From Candidatus Saccharimonadota bacterium (lineage in GTDB: Bacteria > Patescibacteriota > Saccharimonadia > QS-5-54-17): a stretch of 59,242 bases of DNA. Positions 1 through 9,940 of the stretch are shown piece after piece. The position numbers and the translations under genes are program-made. Location: contig JBJHCT010000004.1 of assembly GCA_050486185.1 (NCBI GenBank), forward strand, positions 1 to 59,242, read 5' to 3'. The notes under the pieces were generated by a model. That model had not been told where the DNA came from. It made no database searches and saw nothing but the letters and a program-made list of their open reading frames with translations. Position 1 is the first letter of the stretch. Each line of letters starts with the position of its first letter.

Positions 1-16
1 TAAAAGGAGTTTTGTT

Positions 17-145
17 ATGGAGAGAAATTCGGATCTAAGCAAAGGAATAACACCAATAGAGGGTTCAGAAGTACCCTATGAAGAGGGCGGAGTTTTAGAA
101 GCCTCCAGATTTGCTAAAGGTGATGGCTGGAGTCCTAATCAGTAA
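17..145 (+). CDS. Candidate RiPP precursor peptide (42 aa: MERNSDLSKGITPIEGSEVPYEEGGVLEASRFAKGDGWSPNQ) with KxxxW / streptide-like C-terminal core
   Basis: Hand-translated; too short for the supplied ORF track. ATG 17-19, TAA 143-145, AAGGAG Shine-Dalgarno at 4-9 with a 7-nt spacer. Same strand and 50 nt upstream of a radical SAM/SPASM gene. The C-terminal AKGDGW equals the first six residues of the streptide core as I remember it (AKGDGWKVM). Confidence 0.55.
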   Translation: MERNSDLSKGITPIEGSEVPYEEGGVLEASRFAKGDGWSPNQ

Positions 146-195
146 GTAGCGAACTCTCTAATTACTTGCCCAGCTTTCAGGGAAAAGAGGTATAA

Positions 196-1662
196 GTGAG
201 TGAACTAGCAAATAGCAAAGAGATATATAGAGATAATCTTAATAGTCCAAATACTGAACAATTTATTTTCAGACATGAATTTTATGGTGGCTTAGTCCAC
301 TCCAGAACAGACGGGCTTAGGTATGAACTTAGCCATGAGTACATTGCTTTTCTTGAAGCTTTAGATACCTCTGGAGACATAGATATAGCTACTTTTGCTG
401 TTAGGTTAGCTATACCAGGCGCTGAGGGTTTTAATCCAGACATAAACGAACTTTCTAGGCGTAATCTTCTGACTGAATCAAGCGGCACCAGAGAACAGAA
501 TAATAATTTAGACTCTGTAACAGAGATTATAGTTTCGAATTATAAAGAAAGTAAGACAAGGGACTATTTGCGAGCTCCTGTCAACTTATCGGTATATCCA
601 CTAATGGCTTGTCAGTTGAGCTGTAAGTTCTGCTATGTTTCGCCAGAAAAGTGGGAGGCTGGATCTAGACCTGTAGAAGATTGGATAGAGGTGATGGTTC
701 AAGCAAGAGATGCCGGCACCCCATTTATATCTTTTCTAGGTGGAGATCCGGCTCTGTACAAAGGTATGCCAAGGCTTGTAAGGGCGTGTGATGAGGTTGG
801 AATTAAGGGTACTATAACTACAAATGGGAACTATATGAGCTCAGAACTTCTTAGTGCCTTAGTTGATACGGACAAGATAACTCCAGTGGTATCTATCCAG
901 TCTCTAGATGATTTTCACGAAAGCATAACGGGTAGACCTGTGAGTGAGCCTATAGATACTCTTGGGAAACTTCATGAAAGTGGGACTAGGTGTAACGTTA
1001 ATATGGTTTATACAGAGCAGTCTTACGATCAAGTTGAAAAACTGGTAGATTTTTGCAATAGAGTTGGCGCAGGCAAGTTTACTATAGGCGTGTTTACAGA
1101 TATAAACGATAGCCATATTAAAGTTCCTAGCTTCTCTGATTACAGGAAGTTGCATGAGCACATATCTAGCTATATAGAAGCTCAAGGATATGATGTGGTT
1201 TTTCAGACTGAAGGTTGTCAGCTATATACTGCATACCCTGAGTTAGACTACAAGGCAAAAACCCACTATCAACAATTGACCTTAGGATGTGATGCTGGTC
1301 AAGGTAGGTGTGAGATTATGCATGATGGCAGTATTCTTGGTTGTGCTTTGCTAGACAAAGATAAATGGGGTGGATTGAGCGTGTTTGAGTATGGGTATCA
1401 GGAAGCTTGGGATAAGAGTCAAGAGCTCTCTAAAATAAGAGAGATTCAGAACAGGGACGAAGCTTGTAATAGCGGGCAATGTGGTTTTAGCGATTTTTGT
1501 AATGGCGGGTGCCCTGCACACAATGAGAGACTTTATGGAGATCCAGAAGCTGGTGGCGATCAAAGATGCGAAATACGTAGCGATATTCTAGCTACGGACG
1601 CCCTTAGTTCCGTTATTAATAACGGTAGAGCAAGGTTGCCTGTGTTAAGTAGAGAGGTTTAG
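196..1662 (+). CDS. Radical SAM/SPASM-domain peptide maturase (candidate KxxxW Lys-Trp cyclase, StrB-like)
   Basis: 488-aa ORF with GTG start and AAGAGG upstream. Radical SAM CX3CX2C motif 'CQLSCKFC'. Cys-rich C-terminal SPASM-type region 'CDAGQGRC..GC..CNSGQCGFSDFCNGGCPAH..RCE'. About 110 aa precede the rSAM core, consistent with a peptide-recognition (RRE-like) domain. The radical SAM/SPASM call is firm; the specific chemistry is inferred from the adjacent peptide. Confidence 0.8.
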   Translation: MSELANSKEIYRDNLNSPNTEQFIFRHEFYGGLVHSRTDGLRYELSHEYIAFLEALDTSGDIDIATFAVRLAIPGAEGFNPDINELSRRNLLTESSGTREQNNNLDSVTEIIVSNYKESKTRDYLRAPVNLSVYPLMACQLSCKFCYVSPEKWEAGSRPVEDWIEVMVQARDAGTPFISFLGGDPALYKGMPRLVRACDEVGIKGTITTNGNYMSSELLSALVDTDKITPVVSIQSLDDFHESITGRPVSEPIDTLGKLHESGTRCNVNMVYTEQSYDQVEKLVDFCNRVGAGKFTIGVFTDINDSHIKVPSFSDYRKLHEHISSYIEAQGYDVVFQTEGCQLYTAYPELDYKAKTHYQQLTLGCDAGQGRCEIMHDGSILGCALLDKDKWGGLSVFEYGYQEAWDKSQELSKIREIQNRDEACNSGQCGFSDFCNGGCPAHNERLYGDPEAGGDQRCEIRSDILATDALSSVINNGRARLPVLSREV

Positions 1663-1669
1663 GTATAAA

Positions 1670-3445
1670 ATGGAGGTACTTAATAATGATAATAACCATG
1701 ATCCAGCAATGAGTGACTATTTAGACATAGAGTCAGTCAGCCTTATCAAAGAATGGGTGGATGATCCCCAATGGGCGCATACCATAATCAGGGATTATCA
1801 ATTAAGCCCAGAACTCAAGAAAGATGTTTTATCTATAGTACAGAGCTTAAGCGAGGGTGGTGTGGACCACGACAGATTAGATAGCACCCTATCACGTTTA
1901 AGAGAGTTATCTAAAGACAGTATTGATTTAGCTACTGCGAGCAAAGACGATGAGGTGGACACATGGAAGAAAGCTCGCATAGCGTATGTGTATTACGGAT
2001 TGGGTGAGGCTATAGTAGAGGGAAGCTCTTTTAGTGCGGACGTCATAGCTGATATCAAGAGCGATCTAGGTGAGAACTACCTCCAAGACTTGCGCAAAGT
2101 AGATCTTCTTACCCCTTCAATACTTACTAAGATATCCAGCGGGGTAACAAAAGAGTCTTTAAGAAGCGAATTGATAGATGTTTTAGATCTAGAGAGTGTT
2201 AAGAAGTATCTAGTGCTAAAGAAATGGCAGGACGATCAGCATATATACCATGAAGACTACCTGCACCCTAGATTTAAAAGTTTACGAACTAGATTTAGCA
2301 AGTATGTAGAACTAAACCATCCCAATCTAAAAGAAGAGAGCGAACGAGATGCTCTGTTTGCTATAGAGAACCTATATTGCAGCCAGCCTCTATCTCTTAC
2401 GGATGTAGCTAAATTCATTAAAGCAGAGGCTATAGGTGTTGATTCTCTAACCTCTTCTTTGGGCGGTAAGGCTGTAGGATTAATTAAACTACTACTATCT
2501 GGAGCAAAAGTACCTAGCACTTTTGTTGTCCCCGTAGGTATAAAGGAAGAAAGTATCGGGGAATATATCCCACCACATGAGGGTGTATGGGCTGTGAGAA
2601 GTTCTGCTACGGTTGAGGACGGCGAAAAGACTGCTTTTGCAGGAATATTTCAGAGCTTTTTAAGAGTGCCTAGTAGTGGATTGCTTGAACACATAAGAAA
2701 AGTTATATTATCTGCGGATTCAAAAAGAGTAGCAGATTATGTCAGGCAGTTTGATACAGACAAGCCAGAGATGGCTGTTTTAATTCAAGAATTTCGACAG
2801 CCAGAATTAGCTGGAGTATGGATGGGGTCTAATAGTGATAGTGGACACCTAGAGTGGGTGAAAGGTGATGGAGAGAAGCTTGTTGCTGGTCAGGTTACTC
2901 CTAACCACGAGAGATGGAGTCTGGGCAAACTTGTTGATGGGAATCCTTTAACAGTGGGTGGAGAAAAGGTATTAGTAGCTAAAGAAGCTATCAAGCTACA
3001 AGGTGCCTTGGGAGTCGATACTGCTGATTTTGAGTTCTGCGTCGTAGATGGCGAGATTATTTGGCTGCAGTTTAGGCCGGTTACTAAAATTATATCCTCT
3101 GAGATGCAAGAAGAGGGTGTAAGAAGCGGAGAGTTTATTAAAGGCATGCCAGCATCTCCTGGTCAATGTGAGGGCGACGGCTTTGTGGCTGATAGTCCAG
3201 AAGATGCGGTAGACATCTCAAAAAACAAGGTGTTGATATGTGATGTTACAGATCCTGACTGGCTGTCTGCAATGATCAAATCTGAGGGTATAGTTACCTC
3301 AGAAGGAGGTGTTCTTTGCCATGCCGCTATAACTGCCAGGGAGTTAGGTAAGCCAGCGGTGGTGGGTGCTGGAGAAGAAGTTCTAACACTTCATGACAAA
3401 AGAGTTAGTGTAGATGGTAGCTCAGGAGTAGTAAAAAGACTGTAA
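1670..3445 (+). CDS. PEP-utilising enzyme (PEP synthase / PPDK / rifampicin-phosphotransferase-like ATP-grasp plus swivel-His phosphotransferase) with an unrecognised ~250-aa N-terminal domain
   Basis: 'GGKAVGLIKLL' and 'VRSSATVEDGEKTAFAGIFQS' match the PEP/pyruvate-binding ATP-grasp domain. C-terminal 'TSEGGVLCHAAITARELGKPAVVG' matches the phosphohistidine mobile domain. Starts 7 nt after the rSAM stop, so probably co-transcribed. Confidence 0.75.
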   Translation: MEVLNNDNNHDPAMSDYLDIESVSLIKEWVDDPQWAHTIIRDYQLSPELKKDVLSIVQSLSEGGVDHDRLDSTLSRLRELSKDSIDLATASKDDEVDTWKKARIAYVYYGLGEAIVEGSSFSADVIADIKSDLGENYLQDLRKVDLLTPSILTKISSGVTKESLRSELIDVLDLESVKKYLVLKKWQDDQHIYHEDYLHPRFKSLRTRFSKYVELNHPNLKEESERDALFAIENLYCSQPLSLTDVAKFIKAEAIGVDSLTSSLGGKAVGLIKLLLSGAKVPSTFVVPVGIKEESIGEYIPPHEGVWAVRSSATVEDGEKTAFAGIFQSFLRVPSSGLLEHIRKVILSADSKRVADYVRQFDTDKPEMAVLIQEFRQPELAGVWMGSNSDSGHLEWVKGDGEKLVAGQVTPNHERWSLGKLVDGNPLTVGGEKVLVAKEAIKLQGALGVDTADFEFCVVDGEIIWLQFRPVTKIISSEMQEEGVRSGEFIKGMPASPGQCEGDGFVADSPEDAVDISKNKVLICDVTDPDWLSAMIKSEGIVTSEGGVLCHAAITARELGKPAVVGAGEEVLTLHDKRVSVDGSSGVVKRL

Positions 3446-3616
3446 CTCTATAATCTAATACGAATGTACAAGATGTAAATACTCTGACGAGAGAATTTTA
3501 GCAGTTCACCATAAAGATAAAAACAGAAATAACAACAACATAACAAACCTTATATGACTCTGTTACAATTGCCATTTTCTAATTCATAATTATAATAGTG
3601 AGTCAGAAGGTTATAT

Positions 3617-3691
3617 GGTGCCTGTAGCTTAATGGTAAAGCTCCGCCTTGTGGCGGCGGCGACGAGGGTTCAATTCCCTTCAGGCACCCCA
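3617..3691 (+). tRNA. tRNA-His (anticodon GUG), with encoded G-1 and CCA
   Basis: Cloverleaf folded by hand. Extra 5' G at 3617, acceptor gtgcctg/caggcac, anticodon stem ccgcc/ggcgg with loop ttGTGgc, T-loop ttcaatt, 3' CCA. Confidence 0.9.
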
Positions 3692-3714
3692 TACTTTGTT
3701 TGATTTTGGCTTAG

Positions 3715-3748
3715 TAATGGTGCTATATTAAGAATATAGTAACCATTA
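3715..3748 (+). promoter_or_regulatory. Imperfect 34-nt hairpin abutting the AGGAGG RBS of the yggT-like gene
   Basis: TAATGGT-g-CTATATT-aag-AATATAG-ta-ACCATTA (two 7-bp stems). GGAGG follows directly at 3749-3753. No T-run, so not a classical terminator. Confidence 0.3.
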
Positions 3749-3759
3749 GGAGGCACCTT

Positions 3760-4089
3760 ATGAATGTAAGTGTTAAATTAGTTCAAAACCTAACCAACTT
3801 CTTTGTCGGTTTAGTAGAATTATTCCTAGGTTTACGGTTTGTGCTCAGATTGTTTAATGCCAATACAGCTAATGAGTTTGTAGCTTGGCTATACCGAGTC
3901 AGCGATCAGCTACTCGAGCCTTTCAGAGGCATATTCCCAGTTAGGGAGATAGAACCTGGATTTGTAGTTGAGTTTTCAACTCTATTTGCTATGGTGGCCT
4001 ACGCTATTATCGGCTTCCTCATCATCAGCCTAATAGGTACGCTAACTTCTAGCGAGAACGATTCTAGCGACAATCAAGAACATAGATAA
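3760..4089 (+). CDS. YggT/Ycf19-family small membrane protein
   Basis: 109 aa with hydrophobic N- and C-terminal helices. 'LRFVLRLF...LLEPFRGIFP' resembles the YggT repeat. Strong AGGAGG RBS. Confidence 0.65.
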   Translation: MNVSVKLVQNLTNFFVGLVELFLGLRFVLRLFNANTANEFVAWLYRVSDQLLEPFRGIFPVREIEPGFVVEFSTLFAMVAYAIIGFLIISLIGTLTSSENDSSDNQEHR

Positions 4090-4159
4090 AATATAGCTAC
4101 CCCCAGAATCCAAGGTTACCCTCTTGAAAAAGCATTAGCTTTATGCTATAGTATTATTT

Positions 4160-4528
4160 ATGAATGAAAAACCATCATGGGAACAAGACAGAGAAGAAGC
4201 TATGCGAGACCGCCGAGCTGAACAGACCGGTGTGACCCCAGCGTCGTTACAAAGAGGGGAGCTACATCAAAGACCGGGATATCAAGCGGCCGTAAGGCGT
4301 TTAGGTGAAGCTGGTTTACTAGATGAAGTAGGAGTTGAAAGCAGATTATCTGGTGAGCATGGTAGAAGGCTGAGAGAAGAACCTCATGAACCTAGTAGGT
4401 CAACACTTACCCAAGAACAGGTTATAGACGAAAATGATCGAGCTTGGAGAGAAATGATGGGGTACCTCAGCTCAGATAGACAGGATAGTGGTACTACCGA
4501 TCAACTAGAACTACCCATAGATGAATAG
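4160..4528 (+). CDS. Hypothetical protein, Arg/Glu-rich, no recognisable domain
   Basis: 122-aa ORF in an otherwise empty interval. TATAGT lies about 7 nt upstream of the ATG and there is no obvious RBS, so it may be leaderless. Confidence 0.45.
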   Translation: MNEKPSWEQDREEAMRDRRAEQTGVTPASLQRGELHQRPGYQAAVRRLGEAGLLDEVGVESRLSGEHGRRLREEPHEPSRSTLTQEQVIDENDRAWREMMGYLSSDRQDSGTTDQLELPIDE

Positions 4529-4547
4529 CTAACTATTTAATTTTTTA

Positions 4548-5858
4548 CTACTCCTGGTTATCGGAACTAGTCTTAAAGTTAGCTCCAATAGACTCTAATT
4601 TATCCAAAAACTGATCGTAGCCTCTAAGTAGGTGTTCTACGCCAGTTAGAGTAGAGGTGCCATCAGCTACTAATGCAGCTATGACATGAGCCATGCCGGC
4701 ACGGATATCTGGTATATCTATCTTGGCGGGCTTTAGTTTAGTGGGGCCTTGGATGATAGCGCTGTGTTTGTGAGACTCTCCTTTAAAACGGCAATCTATC
4801 TCACCTAGACATTTAGTAAATATAGCTATATTAGCCCCCATATCATTCAGGCTATCTATGTAGCCGAAACGGCCTTCATAGACTGTCTCATGAACCACTG
4901 ACAACCCTTGAGCCTGGGTTAGTACTACCACTATTGGTTGTTGCCAGTCGGTAGAAAATCCTGGCCAAGTGTCGGTCTCAAGTTCAGTACCGCGCAAACC
5001 TTCAACACTGCGTTTAAAAGTAATACCATCATCATTGATCTGATAATCTCCACCAATACGTCTAACTGTGTTTAAAAACGTACTTAAATGATCTTGCACT
5101 GCGTTTTTAATGGTAATCTTACCGCCTGTAGCGATAGCTGCAGCTGCGTAAGAAGCTGCCTCTAGCCTATCCGGCATAACACTGTATGAGGCGCCATGCA
5201 GCCTCTCTACGCCATCGATAATAATGACTCTATTGGCTCTAAACTCGATGATAGCGCCCATTTGCTGCAAGAGTTTGATGAGATCTAATATCTCAGGTTC
5301 GGTAGCTGCATTGTAGATACTGGTTCGTCCCTCTGCCAATGTTGCAGCTAATATGATGTTTTCTGTAGCTCCAACACTAGGATAGTCTAGTTTAATGGTA
5401 GTACCTTTGAGTCTTTCGGCTTTAGCGTGGTAACCACTGTCATCATATGTAATCTCAGCTCCCATCTGCTGTAGAGCCTTGATGTGATAATCTACCGGTC
5501 TAGGTCCAATCTTATCGCCATCTACAATCGGCACTTCAGCACTGCCAACGCGGTGAAGTAGTGGGCTCAGGGTTAATATCGATATACGGTTTTTACGAGA
5601 TAGATGCTTAACGCTAGTATTAGCTATATCCTTAGCATGTATGCGCAAAGTATGGTCTTCTAGCTCTGTTTCAGCTCCAACAGCTTCTATGATATCTTTA
5701 GTGATCTCAATATCACCTATTTTAGGTATGTTATATAGTACTACCGGCTCATTTGTTAGTAGTGCTGCTACCATCATTTTAGTGGCGGCGTTTTTAGCAC
5801 CGCTAACACTGACTTCACCGTTTAGCGGCTGTCCGCCAGTGATTTTTAATGTTTGCAT
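4548..5858 (-). CDS. murA: UDP-N-acetylglucosamine 1-carboxyvinyltransferase
   Basis: 'MQTLKITGGQPLNGEVSVSGAKNAA', 'IGPRPVDYH' and full-length EPSP-synthase-fold similarity. Start placed at the internal Met (MQTLKI), not the ORF-track Met at 5897. The active-site position is Asp rather than Cys (see findings). Confidence 0.9.
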   Translation of the reverse strand: MQTLKITGGQPLNGEVSVSGAKNAATKMMVAALLTNEPVVLYNIPKIGDIEITKDIIEAVGAETELEDHTLRIHAKDIANTSVKHLSRKNRISILTLSPLLHRVGSAEVPIVDGDKIGPRPVDYHIKALQQMGAEITYDDSGYHAKAERLKGTTIKLDYPSVGATENIILAATLAEGRTSIYNAATEPEILDLIKLLQQMGAIIEFRANRVIIIDGVERLHGASYSVMPDRLEAASYAAAAIATGGKITIKNAVQDHLSTFLNTVRRIGGDYQINDDGITFKRSVEGLRGTELETDTWPGFSTDWQQPIVVVLTQAQGLSVVHETVYEGRFGYIDSLNDMGANIAIFTKCLGEIDCRFKGESHKHSAIIQGPTKLKPAKIDIPDIRAGMAHVIAALVADGTSTLTGVEHLLRGYDQFLDKLESIGANFKTSSDNQE

Positions 5859-5931
5859 ACCAAGTATTGTAGCAAAAGCCGGTATATATAACAGCATTAG
5901 CTTATCTGATATAATCTGGAAGCGTAAACAT

Positions 5932-6007
5932 GCCCCGGTAGCTCAGTGAATAGAGCGTCTGGTTTCGGCCCAGAAGGTCGTAGGTTTGAATCCTACCCGG
6001 GGTGCCA
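5932..6007 (+). tRNA. tRNA-Arg (anticodon UCG)
   Basis: Acceptor gccccgg/ccggggt (G1:U72), anticodon stem tctgg/ccaga with loop ttTCGgc, T-arm gtagg-tttgaat-cctac, CCA encoded. Confidence 0.9.
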
Positions 6008-6053
6008 ATTTTTACTATTTATGGTATAAATCTATCTGTTCATTAAAACTTCC

Positions 6054-6130
6054 GGGCCTGTAGCTCAGTTGGTTAGAGCAGCGGCCTCTTAAGCCGCGTG
6101 TCGTGGGTTCGAATCCCACCAGGCCCTCCA
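6054..6130 (+). tRNA. tRNA-Lys (anticodon CUU)
   Basis: Acceptor gggcctg/caggccc, anticodon stem gcggc/gccgc with loop ctCTTaa, T-arm gtggg-ttcgaat-cccac, CCA encoded. Confidence 0.9.
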
Positions 6131-6163
6131 TTTGATATTTATAAAGTATAGTATGCTATTTGT

Positions 6164-6967
6164 ATGGAGCAGCCATTTACAGCAGTTGTGGGGGTAGAAA
6201 GTAGAAGCCAGTACTTGGAACTGGCTCAAGAAGTTGCTGATAGAGATCGCTCACTAGGTGAATTAGCGGTCGGAGTTTTGATGAGCGAAAAAACTGGCTT
6301 ACTGGGATTACCTAATCGTCACGGAGAAATTTATCCTGACTTTGATCGACTAGATGCTATAGCTCATGCAGCTGAGAGTCTCGATAATCTTGGCCTACCC
6401 ATCATAATTCACTACAACACAGATAATCCTGATAGGGTGGGAGATCAATTGATTAGAGCTCTAGCTCCGTATCCAAATATAAAATTGGTCCAGGTCAACG
6501 GACTAGACCTAGATCAACTTCGCAAATTACGCAAACTCAAAGAATCTAAAGACATTTCAATTATTATGCAAGTTAATGCTCAGCTATTAGAGTCTCATAC
6601 CCCGAGTGAGTTAACTCAAGCTATAACTAGGTTCGATGAGGAGGTAGTGAGTTATGCTTGGCTAGATGGTTCTGGAGGCTTAGGTAAAAAGCTAGATTGG
6701 GAGAAGCTAGAACCATTCGTAAAAGAATTGCAAGGGGTCGGCATAGGCGTAGGTATAGCTGGTGGTTTGAACCCGGATAACTTAGAAGAAATGCTACCTG
6801 ATATACTAGATAGTTATACAGAAATAAGCTGGGATGCTCAGAGCGGCGTGATGGATACGATCGATAGAGGGATACAGAGATTTGATACTAATAAAGCAAA
6901 GAACTTCTTGGTTAAATCTATGCAACTAAGACAACAAATTGCAGCTAGAGATGCCGATGCTGCTTAA
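6164..6967 (+). CDS. Phosphoribosylanthranilate isomerase (TrpF)-like TIM-barrel protein
   Basis: 'LVQVNG', 'LDGSGGLGKKLDWEKL', 'IAGGLNPDNL' and 'SWDAQSGV' follow the order of the PRAI signature blocks (LHG / D..GGtGk.fdW / lAGGl.p.Nv / vD.sSGvE). No other trp genes in the window. Confidence 0.45.
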   Translation: MEQPFTAVVGVESRSQYLELAQEVADRDRSLGELAVGVLMSEKTGLLGLPNRHGEIYPDFDRLDAIAHAAESLDNLGLPIIIHYNTDNPDRVGDQLIRALAPYPNIKLVQVNGLDLDQLRKLRKLKESKDISIIMQVNAQLLESHTPSELTQAITRFDEEVVSYAWLDGSGGLGKKLDWEKLEPFVKELQGVGIGVGIAGGLNPDNLEEMLPDILDSYTEISWDAQSGVMDTIDRGIQRFDTNKAKNFLVKSMQLRQQIAARDADAA

Positions 6968-8284: not shown

Positions 8285-9940
8285 ATGGAGAAGCGTATGG
8301 TAGCCCATAAAAGCTCACTAGAGATTTCTAGCCCAGCCAGACCCAACCTATCACCTCAACTATCTGACTCTCAAGAAGTTCTAGGTTCTCTGGAAAGAGA
8401 CTTCGAATTAGAGGAGTCTAGATTTAGACTCAATATTAATCCTGATAATGAGATCATGACGAAGGCCTTTAAGCTTAGGGCCGATGTTTATGGTAAGGAA
8501 ATGGGGTTTTTGGACCCAGATAAAATCGACCAAGAAGAAGGTATTGAGACGGATATATATGATAAGTATTCTACCCACATCGTAGTAGAAGATGATAGTG
8601 GTAGTGTTGTCGGTAATATGAGGCTTATACATGAAAGCGAAGTTGACGTTCTGCCTGTTGGGCACTTCTTTAATATATTTGTTCCCGAAGGGTCAGTTGA
8701 GGCTTCTAGATACATATCTAGAACTAAGGATCCCAAGGATCAAAGAGCGATATCTATTGCTTTAATTAGAGCCGGCACAGAACAGGCTATAGATGCAGAT
8801 GCACCTTACATATATATGACCATAGAAAGGGATCTTTACGAGATGTTTATAAATATGGGCATACCGTTAGAAGTTGTAGATGACCCTAAATTTATAAAAG
8901 AGTACAATACTACTAATATGGCTTGCAGAGTCAACCCTAGACGTGTTGCAGCTGGAATATTAGAGGCTGACACATTACTGAAACCAAGTCGTAAAGGAAC
9001 TCTAAGGACTAGAAGGACTAAACTTTCCCCATTTTTCTACAACTCTAGCTTGAGTGATATAGCTAGCGGGTTTAGTAAGTCTGATTTAGAGGCGAGAATG
9101 AGACCGTTTGAGCGCAATCTAGGTTTTCTTTCTAAAGAGGATCAAGAAAAAATAATGAGCTCTAGAGTTTCTATAGCTGGTACTGGTGGTGATGGTGGTA
9201 TGCTTGCTTTGCAACTTGCTAGGTTGGGTGTTGGTAGTTTTAAGCTAGCAGACCCAGAAGTATTTGAATTAGAGAATTTAAATCGCCAAGCAGCATCTAC
9301 ATATAAGACTATAGGCAGAAATAAAGCTGAAGTTATAGCAGAATCTATTTTAGATATTAACCCCTCTGCCAATATCGAGGTTTTCACCGATGGGGTTCAG
9401 ACTGGGAATGTGGAAGAGTTTGTTAGAGGTAGCGACTTAGTAATAGATGAAACAGAGTTTACAGTCCCAGGCATAGGTGTGATGATAGCTAGAGAATCTA
9501 GAAAACAAGGAAGACCAGTCTTGATGGCTCTTAACGTTGGTTATGGTTGTTATGTAACCTCATTTGATCCAGAGGGGTATACTTTTGAAGATATGATGGG
9601 TATAGATAAAAATGCTCCGTTATCAGAAGTAGCAGACCAAGAGATACCTATTGAACGCTGGGTTGGCCATATACCGAGCTATACCGACTTGAGAGTATTA
9701 GAAAAAGTGTCTAATGGCGAAATGACTGCACCATCTGTAGCTCCTGGAGTCGCTATGGCGGCTGGGGTTGCTTCTACTCAGGCTATTTGGCGCATACTTG
9801 GGTATAAAGGTCGCTTTGCTGATGCGACAGCACCAAACTGCCTGTCGTTCGATGCTGTAGACGGTTTTAAGCTAGTTAAAGACACACCAGAAGGATTCAG
9901 ACAATCAATTGGTAGGCTAGCTTTTAATAACTCTCAGTAG
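8285..9940 (+). CDS. Fusion protein: N-terminal autoinducer-synthase/FeeM-like GNAT acyltransferase domain plus C-terminal ThiF/E1-like adenylyltransferase domain
   Basis: The N-terminal 'FKLRADVYGKEMGFLDPDK..EEGIETDIYDKYSTHIVVEDDSGSVVGNMRLI' fits the LuxI / N-acyl-amino-acid-synthase pattern (R..VF..e.gw...g.E.D.yD...H.l..d..g.vvG..Rl). The C-terminal 'IAGTGGDGGMLALQLARLGVGSFKLADPEVFELENLNRQ' is the ThiF/MoeB/E1 nucleotide-binding signature. Confidence 0.6.
   Translation: MEKRMVAHKSSLEISSPARPNLSPQLSDSQEVLGSLERDFELEESRFRLNINPDNEIMTKAFKLRADVYGKEMGFLDPDKIDQEEGIETDIYDKYSTHIVVEDDSGSVVGNMRLIHESEVDVLPVGHFFNIFVPEGSVEASRYISRTKDPKDQRAISIALIRAGTEQAIDADAPYIYMTIERDLYEMFINMGIPLEVVDDPKFIKEYNTTNMACRVNPRRVAAGILEADTLLKPSRKGTLRTRRTKLSPFFYNSSLSDIASGFSKSDLEARMRPFERNLGFLSKEDQEKIMSSRVSIAGTGGDGGMLALQLARLGVGSFKLADPEVFELENLNRQAASTYKTIGRNKAEVIAESILDINPSANIEVFTDGVQTGNVEEFVRGSDLVIDETEFTVPGIGVMIARESRKQGRPVLMALNVGYGCYVTSFDPEGYTFEDMMGIDKNAPLSEVADQEIPIERWVGHIPSYTDLRVLEKVSNGEMTAPSVAPGVAMAAGVASTQAIWRILGYKGRFADATAPNCLSFDAVDGFKLVKDTPEGFRQSIGRLAFNNSQ

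Follow-up and report, generated by a model that had tools for sequence, protein, structure and literature searches.

A predicted streptide-type peptide cassette with a phosphotransferase-like partner in a Saccharibacteria genome

The first lines of contig JBJHCT010000004.1 (assembly GCA_050486185.1, Candidatus Saccharimonadota bacterium), analysed here over its whole length of 59,242 nt and called the window below, hold a 42-codon open reading frame (ORF) whose product contains the exact hexapeptide AKGDGW. It is followed on the same strand by genes for a radical S-adenosylmethionine (SAM) enzyme and for a phosphotransferase-like enzyme. We interpret positions 17-3445 as a compact three-gene cassette for a peptide that is made by the ribosome and modified after translation (RiPP), i.e., a streptide-type precursor, its cyclase, and a phosphotransferase that acts as a tailoring step, and we assign this interpretation a probability of about 0.75.

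Within the searchable literature, KGDGW peptides and their cyclases are known from streptococci, Lactococcus lactis, and a Pseudomonas, and in each case a protease and an ABC transporter are encoded downstream (PMC5491770). The enzymes StrB, SuiB, and AgaB link the beta-carbon of Lys to C7 of Trp within KGDGW; cyclases of this type (KW_cyclase) show strict specificity for the Lys, for the Trp, and for where the motif lies, and the cross-linking requires the leader (PMC5491770, PMC9389541).

Results

Table 1. Features at the left end of the window. L034 is the closest relative (GCA_040904145.1).
Feature	Position	Strand	Basis
Shine-Dalgarno-like AAGGAG	4..9	+	Read from the sequence; 7 nt before ATG17
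Precursor peptide gene, StrA/SuiA-like, 42 aa	17..145	+	Translation, TIGR04079, SuiA alignment, orthologues
Codons for AKGDGW; predicted cross-link partners Lys34 (116-118) and Trp38 (128-130)	113..130	+	
Radical SAM/SPASM peptide cyclase (predicted), StrB/SuiB homologue, 488 aa, GTG start	196..1662	+	Pfam Radical_SAM, TIGR04080, SuiB
Phosphotransferase-like enzyme, 591 aa	1670..3445	+	Pfam PPDK_N and PEP-utilizers, AlphaFold2 model, Foldseek
Right-hand cassette boundary	3498..3691	+	Synteny with L034 from 3498; tRNA-His(GTG) at 3618-3691 (tRNA scans)

The precursor gene

The ORF had been singled out in an initial annotation made from the sequence alone, and its coordinates, its ribosome-binding site, and its translation all proved exact on re-reading (ATG 17 to TAA 143-145; MERNSDLSKGITPIEGSEVPYEEGGVLEASRFAKGDGWSPNQ). 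Translation also bears out that the peptide has no Cys and only one K-x3-W, formed by Lys34 and Trp38 (nt 116-130). A leader of about residues 1-32, with the conserved motif PYEEGGVLEAS, precedes a core that starts at about Ala33.

Expectations for chance occurrence were computed from the amino acid composition of the window translated in all six frames. Because a bare K-x3-W is common (62 observed vs. 75 expected), it is uninformative alone. KGDGW, by comparison, was observed once against an expectation of 4.3e-3, and AKGDGW once against 2.3e-4; this sole exact match sits 51 nt upstream of the StrB/SuiB homologue. Since the reading frame is open back to base 2, at the end of a contig that begins 16 nt 5' of the ORF, a longer N-terminus is formally possible, and the Shine-Dalgarno spacing favours ATG17. 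The one other contig found to encode an identical cyclase (L001) begins inside the peptide ORF.

The peptide passes the NCBIfam hidden Markov model TIGR04079 ('KxxxW-cyclized peptide pheromone') at 49.3 bits (cutoff 35; E 3.1e-13), its residues 17-39 covering all 23 profile positions, and the same model matches 11 of 14 related precursors. Leader and core align with the SuiA 22-mer of the SuiB co-crystal (GGVLEASRFAKGDGWS vs. EKVLESSAMAKGDGWH), with VLEAS in the window peptide in the place of VLESS in SuiA. Like the precursors of the streptide systems StrA/StrB/StrC (Streptococcus thermophilus), SuiA/SuiB (S. suis), and AgaA/AgaB, it is short and combines an exact AKGDGW core with a leader of the VLE(S/A)S type. 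Unlike them, it has a longer leader with a PYxxGG motif and, as had been pointed out at the outset, a tail reading SPNQ instead of the streptococcal KVM. The prediction that such an ORF would be missed by routine annotation was right only in part: Orthologous ORFs of 52-86 aa are called as genes in public assemblies, and a curated model exists for the KxxxW peptide family.

Loci of cyclase relatives, including more distant ones, were taken from metagenome assemblies, GTDB genomes, and JGI metagenomes. The initial annotation had proposed a search for short KGDGW ORFs next to radical SAM genes in related genomes, and such an ORF was found directly before the cyclase in every locus with readable upstream DNA. 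It had also named non-conservation of the frame or of KxxxW as evidence against its reading; both are kept in 14 distinct precursors beside homologous radical SAM genes, and when these are aligned, the only invariant columns are K, G, D, G, and W, with Phe at -2 nearly invariant. The codons for KGDGW vary synonymously among loci (AAA/AAG, GGT/GGC/GGA, GAT/GAC, GGC/GGT/GGG/GGA), as expected under selection on the protein. When 1.84 billion representatives were searched exhaustively with phmmer, six proteins matched the 42-mer at E ≤ 1e-3, and each of them fits the pattern ...PY..GGV[LF]E..x.F.KGDGW. The closest relatives are the precursors of L014, L015, L016/L038, and L004 (a contig labelled Rhizobium anhuiense), whose C-terminal parts read ...AYAQGGALEASHFAKGDGWKSPKLDEEALED, ...KPYEEGGVFEASKFAKGDGWKSNDTISG..., ...DSYDKGGVFEASKFAKGDGWSN, and ...IPYEQGGVLEAAKFAKGDGWKDKF..., respectively.

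Because the frame and KGDGW are conserved, the codons change synonymously, and the phmmer matches share one form, we conclude from sequence comparison that the 42-residue ORF is a genuine precursor gene of the streptide family, i.e., of peptides cyclised from Lys to Trp. The match to TIGR04079, the alignment with SuiA, the adjacent SuiB homologue, and the invariant KGDGW all support Lys34-Trp38 as the predicted site of modification.

The radical SAM cyclase

Among NCBIfam models, TIGR04080 ('KxxxW cyclic peptide radical SAM maturase') fits the second gene product best by a wide margin (225.7 bits, E 8.6e-67, vs. 60.8 bits for the WgkB model NF050035). Its best match among solved structures is SuiB of S. 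suis (5v1q; residues 20-442 vs. 25-442, E 2.3e-60), in an alignment that spans the N-terminal region resembling a RiPP recognition element (RRE), the radical SAM core, and the SPASM domain. As in the streptide system, the peptide is thus adjacent to an enzyme that combines RRE, radical SAM, and SPASM parts and is homologous over nearly its full length. The radical SAM motif CX3CX2C (C139/C143/C146) is invariant in the alignment of the clade, as are eight more cysteines (C341, C365, C383, C424, C429, C435, C439, and C458). This set agrees with SuiB, in which a seven-Cys SPASM motif and a linker Cys give two fully ligated auxiliary clusters (PMC6231123).

Close relatives of the cyclase are few: About 11, at 37-56% identity, were found among 5.8 billion clustered proteins. 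It appears to be a divergent relative of StrB in a rare clade and, by the NCBI threshold taken up in the Discussion, is not an equivalog. WgkB (tryglysin) and DarE (darobactin) are likewise SPASM-type radical SAM enzymes that join Lys and Trp in small ribosomal peptides, as is predicted for the window enzyme; in contrast, their substrate motifs are WGK and W-x-W-x-K, and they match the cyclase much more weakly in sequence. Given the strong homology to the streptide enzymes, a Lys-Trp cross-link in the window peptide is highly probable.

The phosphotransferase-like enzyme

The product of the third gene has a partial PPDK_N ATP-binding domain at residues 304-413 (PF01326, E 3.8e-24) and a PEP-utilizers mobile domain at residues 517-586 (PF00391, E 4e-22). 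An AlphaFold2 model built from 42 homologues (predicted local distance difference test, pLDDT, 90; predicted TM-score 0.88) has three parts: an all-helical N-terminal domain (about 20-280), an ATP-grasp domain of the PPDK_N type (about 284-480), and a small, beta-rich swivelling phosphohistidine domain (about 489-590) that carries His551. The best Foldseek matches in the PDB are the Listeria rifampin phosphotransferase (RPH) 5hv3 (E 1.2e-13) and the pyruvate phosphate dikinase (PPDK) 1kbl (E 3.6e-13), and the fold also matches 5hv6. Invariant in the 42 homologues are GGK 265-267, RSSA..ED 310-317, FAG 323-325, and His551 in GG.L.H..I..RE, together with E113, E117, D145, S150, Y180, K184, Q187, and D188 of the helical domain. 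The model and the profiles place the protein in the superfamily of phosphoenolpyruvate (PEP) synthase, PPDK, and RPH, with an ATP site and a catalytic His that appear intact.

Like RPH-Lm (PDB 5HV3/5FBS) and the dikinases PEP synthase and PPDK, the window enzyme combines ATP-grasp and swivelling phosphohistidine domains and keeps all the hallmark motifs. Unlike them, it is short (591 aa vs. about 790-870 aa), has neither the rifampin-binding domain nor the C-terminal PEP/pyruvate TIM-barrel (the chain stops at residue 591, with the His domain as its last part), and is genetically tied to peptide-modifying radical SAM enzymes. A further difference is its N-terminal helical domain of some 260 aa: Modelled alone (window 1670-2524, residues 1-285; pLDDT 92), this part gave no PDB match better than E 0.8 in Foldseek, with TM below 0.22. 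That it might be a winged-helix RRE is ruled out by its all-helical fold. The NCBIfam models for PEP synthase, PPDK, and RPH give partial matches only, all far below their cutoffs (e.g., for the RPH models NF041857/NF000283, 102 bits vs. 999 and 54 bits vs. 1700). The family comprises about 100 clusters at 32-51% identity.

Association with peptide maturases

The phosphotransferase gene lies directly 3' of the cyclase gene, frequently with an overlap of 1-19 nt, in the window, L014, L015, and L016/L017/L038. The same order recurs in a second clade (L007, L009, L012, L013, L020-L026, L029, and L042), drawn from metagenome-assembled genomes (MAGs) of uncultured human-gut Bacilli/'Tenericutes', whose cyclases are 28-31% identical to that of the window and whose precursors, of about 22-34 aa, read ...KVFGSCHFSKGDGW[K/N/-]. 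In a neighbour-joining tree of the cyclases, these two phosphotransferase-linked clades are separate. A phosphotransferase homologue (P0051, 37% identity) is also part of a different RiPP-type cluster in Clostridiales (L043 1-9811; also L044 and L045), in which genes for a methyltransferase, an aminotransferase, a B12-radical SAM enzyme, a 43-aa ORF, and two radical SAM/SPASM enzymes are followed by the phosphotransferase, a 42-aa peptide ending in MAGNGNCSDCC, a YcaO protein, and an S51 peptidase. Because the phosphotransferase recurs beside radical SAM peptide maturases, we propose a role in peptide tailoring, to which this repeated pairing points.

Other KGDGW cassettes have other partners in place of the phosphotransferase: a GNAT acyltransferase in L002/L005 and L004, an MFS transporter in L008 (Sporolactobacillus), and an MNIO (DUF692)-like enzyme in L011. 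In L002 (7243-7794; L005 5189-5740), from a high-GC MAG, the precursor is a 183-aa protein of the multi-core streptide type, with three tandem copies of ...EDVFDRAHFAKGDGWKTM..., and is encoded upstream of the genes for a StrB-like cyclase and a GNAT of 306 aa. The GNAT-linked precursors (L004 1241-1594, L002 7243-7794, and P0254) share a C-terminal extension, ...KRPI(E/Q/S)(E/A)I(V/L/I)(K/A)EY(R/G)F..., which the window peptide lacks and which could serve as a follower domain for recognition by the GNAT. In L011 (1191-4176), the genes that come after a KGDGW precursor (...MRASAFAKGDGWVVLSTPPEVDESGLKAKE) and its cyclase encode a 222-aa protein and the MNIO-like enzyme, which suggests yet another tailored streptide variant. 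A NUDIX hydrolase gene adjoins the cassette downstream in L014 (5279-5761) and upstream in the gut Bacilli loci L024 (4200-4736) and L042 (3890-4402).

In L040 and L041, a phosphotransferase homologue (P0084) is flanked by an HTH_3 protein on one side and an MBL-fold hydrolase on the other, near AbiEii and a NERD/UvrD helicase, in a setting that resembles a defence island and in which PADLOC found no match. For the window genes, a defence-system role is unsupported: PADLOC has no match for the phosphotransferase, and the cyclase shows just a generic radical SAM similarity of the viperin type.

Host and genomic setting

The contig is assigned to Saccharibacteria (TM7), of the candidate phyla radiation, because of the matches of its MurA (4548-5897, minus strand), which shares 91% and 82% identity with proteins from MAGs named Candidatus Saccharimonadales bacterium and whose next hundred matches are all from Saccharimonadia or Patescibacteria. 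Its closest relative, L034, keeps the order tRNA-Lys, tRNA-Arg, MurA, hypothetical, YggT, tRNA-His. Nucleotide homology between the window and L034 (blastn, window 1-6200) begins at 3498, i.e., 53 nt past the stop codon of the third gene. Next after the phosphotransferase come tRNA-His and housekeeping genes, which share synteny with this sister genome that has no cassette. L034 is entirely without the three cassette genes; beyond its tRNA-His come tRNA-Arg, tRNA-Gly, and a PBP-family gene. Because L034 is without the cassette and homology starts only at 3498, the cassette is, by this comparison, an accessory element at a synteny break beside tRNA-His.

The conserved block (tRNA-His, YggT, a hypothetical protein of 119-122 aa, MurA, tRNA-Arg, tRNA-Lys) extends over 3498-6130 in the window and 9713-12381 in L034, and the DNA that flanks it differs between the two, which marks the tRNA-rich segment as putatively variable. 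A similar cassette is found at another site of the chromosome in L038 (GCA_026397055.1), also a Patescibacteria MAG. A recent foreign origin finds no support in base composition, the GC content over positions 1-3000 (0.41) being like that of the rest of the contig (0.39-0.43).

Further into the window, a 551-aa fusion protein of unusual architecture is encoded at 8285-9940 (plus strand): Its N-terminal part is similar to GNAT, autoinducer-synthase, and N-acyl-amino-acid-synthase (FeeM) enzymes, and its C-terminal part is a ThiF/E1-type adenylyltransferase domain. At the corresponding place in the sister genome L036, ThiF is encoded by a gene of its own.

Discussion

If the three genes act in one pathway, the first would supply a precursor in which PYEEGGVLEAS is the equivalent of the streptococcal VLESS region and the core runs from AKGDGW. 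The cyclase would bind this leader, abstract a hydrogen at Lys34, and join the Lys side chain to the indole of Trp38, yielding, if homology is a guide, the same small K-G-D-G-W macrocycle as in streptide. The third gene would stand in place of StrC, with a family-specific helical domain instead of a pyruvate- or rifampin-binding domain. Its linkage to the cyclase and its modelled fold make a tailoring step its most likely role: By analogy with PPDK and RPH, the beta-phosphate of ATP would pass to His551 and from there to an acceptor held by the helical domain, so that ATP-driven phosphoryl transfer (ATP to AMP and Pi) would most likely reach the peptide, or a group that reacts further. That the third enzyme acts on the peptide is plausible, at odds close to even. 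A more tentative proposal, which we consider somewhat doubtful, is that it is the first representative of a class of RiPP-tailoring enzymes that has so far gone unrecognised, in which a swivelling phosphohistidine phosphorylates, or activates with ATP, a peptide cyclised by a radical SAM enzyme.

Several observations weigh against a tailored streptide pathway of this kind. The cyclase falls short of the TIGR04080 equivalog cutoff (225.7 bits vs. 500) and is just some 30% identical to SuiB. The cassette has no visible protease or exporter gene, on a contig that begins 16 nt upstream of the peptide. In the streptide system, an shp/rgg quorum-sensing pair upstream provides control and a StrC peptidase/ABC exporter lies downstream; in the window, any such pair would lie beyond the contig end, 16 nt from the ORF, and the PPDK/RPH-like phosphotransferase is in the place of StrC. 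By sequence comparison, the locus is therefore without two features that define StrABC, i.e., an equivalog-level cyclase and StrC. In addition, the phosphotransferase homologue P0084 (L040 200-4800, also L041) has neither a cyclase nor a KGDGW peptide nearby, and the precursor alignment has no fixed Ser, Thr, or Tyr position across the phosphotransferase-linked precursors.

Because no hydroxyl residue has a fixed position in all linked precursors, a role as a plain Ser/Thr kinase is unsupported. The Ser that follows the Trp was considered as a phospho-acceptor and dropped: The window clade has W-S or W-K-S, and the gut Bacilli precursors stop at W, WK, or WN. The phosphoryl group might be accepted by the Asp, Lys, or Trp that are invariant in the motif, by one end of the peptide chain, by a group that the cyclase introduces, or by a target other than the peptide.

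A possible alternative is that the pathway is plainly streptide-like, with cross-linking by the radical SAM enzyme as the sole modification of the peptide, and that the PPDK/RPH-like gene serves self-protection or inactivation (as RPH does for rifampin), regulation, or unrelated metabolism. RPH, its closest solved relative, is a resistance enzyme, and the occurrence of the family without a cyclase in L040/L041, the lack of a conserved hydroxyl acceptor, and the existence of KGDGW cassettes that manage with an MFS transporter, a GNAT, or an MNIO enzyme would all fit such a role. However, its linkage to the cyclase is tight, with both genes on one strand and frequently overlapping, in two clades whose cyclases are only 28-31% identical, and the gene recurs in a second, unrelated radical SAM/YcaO peptide cluster; moreover, a 591-aa passenger in a 3.4-kb accessory cassette is unlikely to be retained in a reduced epibiont genome. 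We consider this alternative unlikely.

The cyclase itself might make a different modification of KGDGW, e.g., a link with a regiochemistry other than Lys-Cbeta to Trp-C7, a second link, or an ether. The score below the equivalog cutoff and the low identity to SuiB leave room for another Lys/Trp linkage, and the related radical SAM enzymes WgkB and DarE do form different ones (PMC11851443, PMC8326336). Yet the substrate motif is identical in every residue, the window peptide and SuiA share a VLE(A/S)S leader, the cyclase keeps the domain order of SuiB along with all cluster ligands, and enzymes of this group are strictly motif-specific (PMC5491770), and a departure from the streptide linkage is, in our view, quite improbable. 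Finally, that the ORF is a chance open frame in 5' untranslated or intergenic DNA could be suspected from its shortness and its position at the extreme end of the contig, and is rejected as having a negligible chance of being true, given the 2.3e-4 occurrences of AKGDGW expected, the pass against a curated model, the ideally spaced Shine-Dalgarno sequence, and the conservation of frame, motif, and leader, with synonymous changes, at all orthologous loci.

To return to the tailored three-gene cassette, phosphorylated RiPPs with a kinase encoded in the cluster have precedents in the salivaricin 10 lanthipeptides and in a cyanobactin kinase domain (PMC10235938, PMC12639078). In a literature search that left many subscription papers outside its reach, we found no publication that links a PEP-utilizing, dikinase, or RPH-like enzyme to RiPPs or to radical SAM enzymes, and none on streptide-type clusters in Saccharibacteria or Patescibacteria; within the searchable literature, the fold of the third enzyme has thus not previously been linked to ribosomal peptides. 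What is new here is the host from the candidate phyla radiation, the rare clade of cyclases, and the conserved phosphotransferase partner. For the roughly 100 clusters of this phosphotransferase family, which have no assigned function, the cassette could give access to function, and the three-gene variant is compact enough (3.4 kb) for synthesis and expression in E. coli. The signature of peptide, cyclase, and phosphotransferase is also a handle for mining uncultured gut Bacilli.

With a host from an epibiont lineage of the Saccharibacteria rather than a streptococcus, the window extends the streptide family to a member of the candidate phyla radiation with a very small genome. To our knowledge, streptide itself has yet to be assigned a biological role. 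An accessory peptide cassette that is retained in such a genome probably bears on the interaction with the host bacterium. If the proposed phosphotransferase step is correct, Saccharibacteria and uncultured gut Bacilli would make a chemically new streptide analogue, either phosphorylated or further condensed, and, as the product of an epibiont with a reduced genome, it could be a signal or a weapon directed toward the host bacterium.

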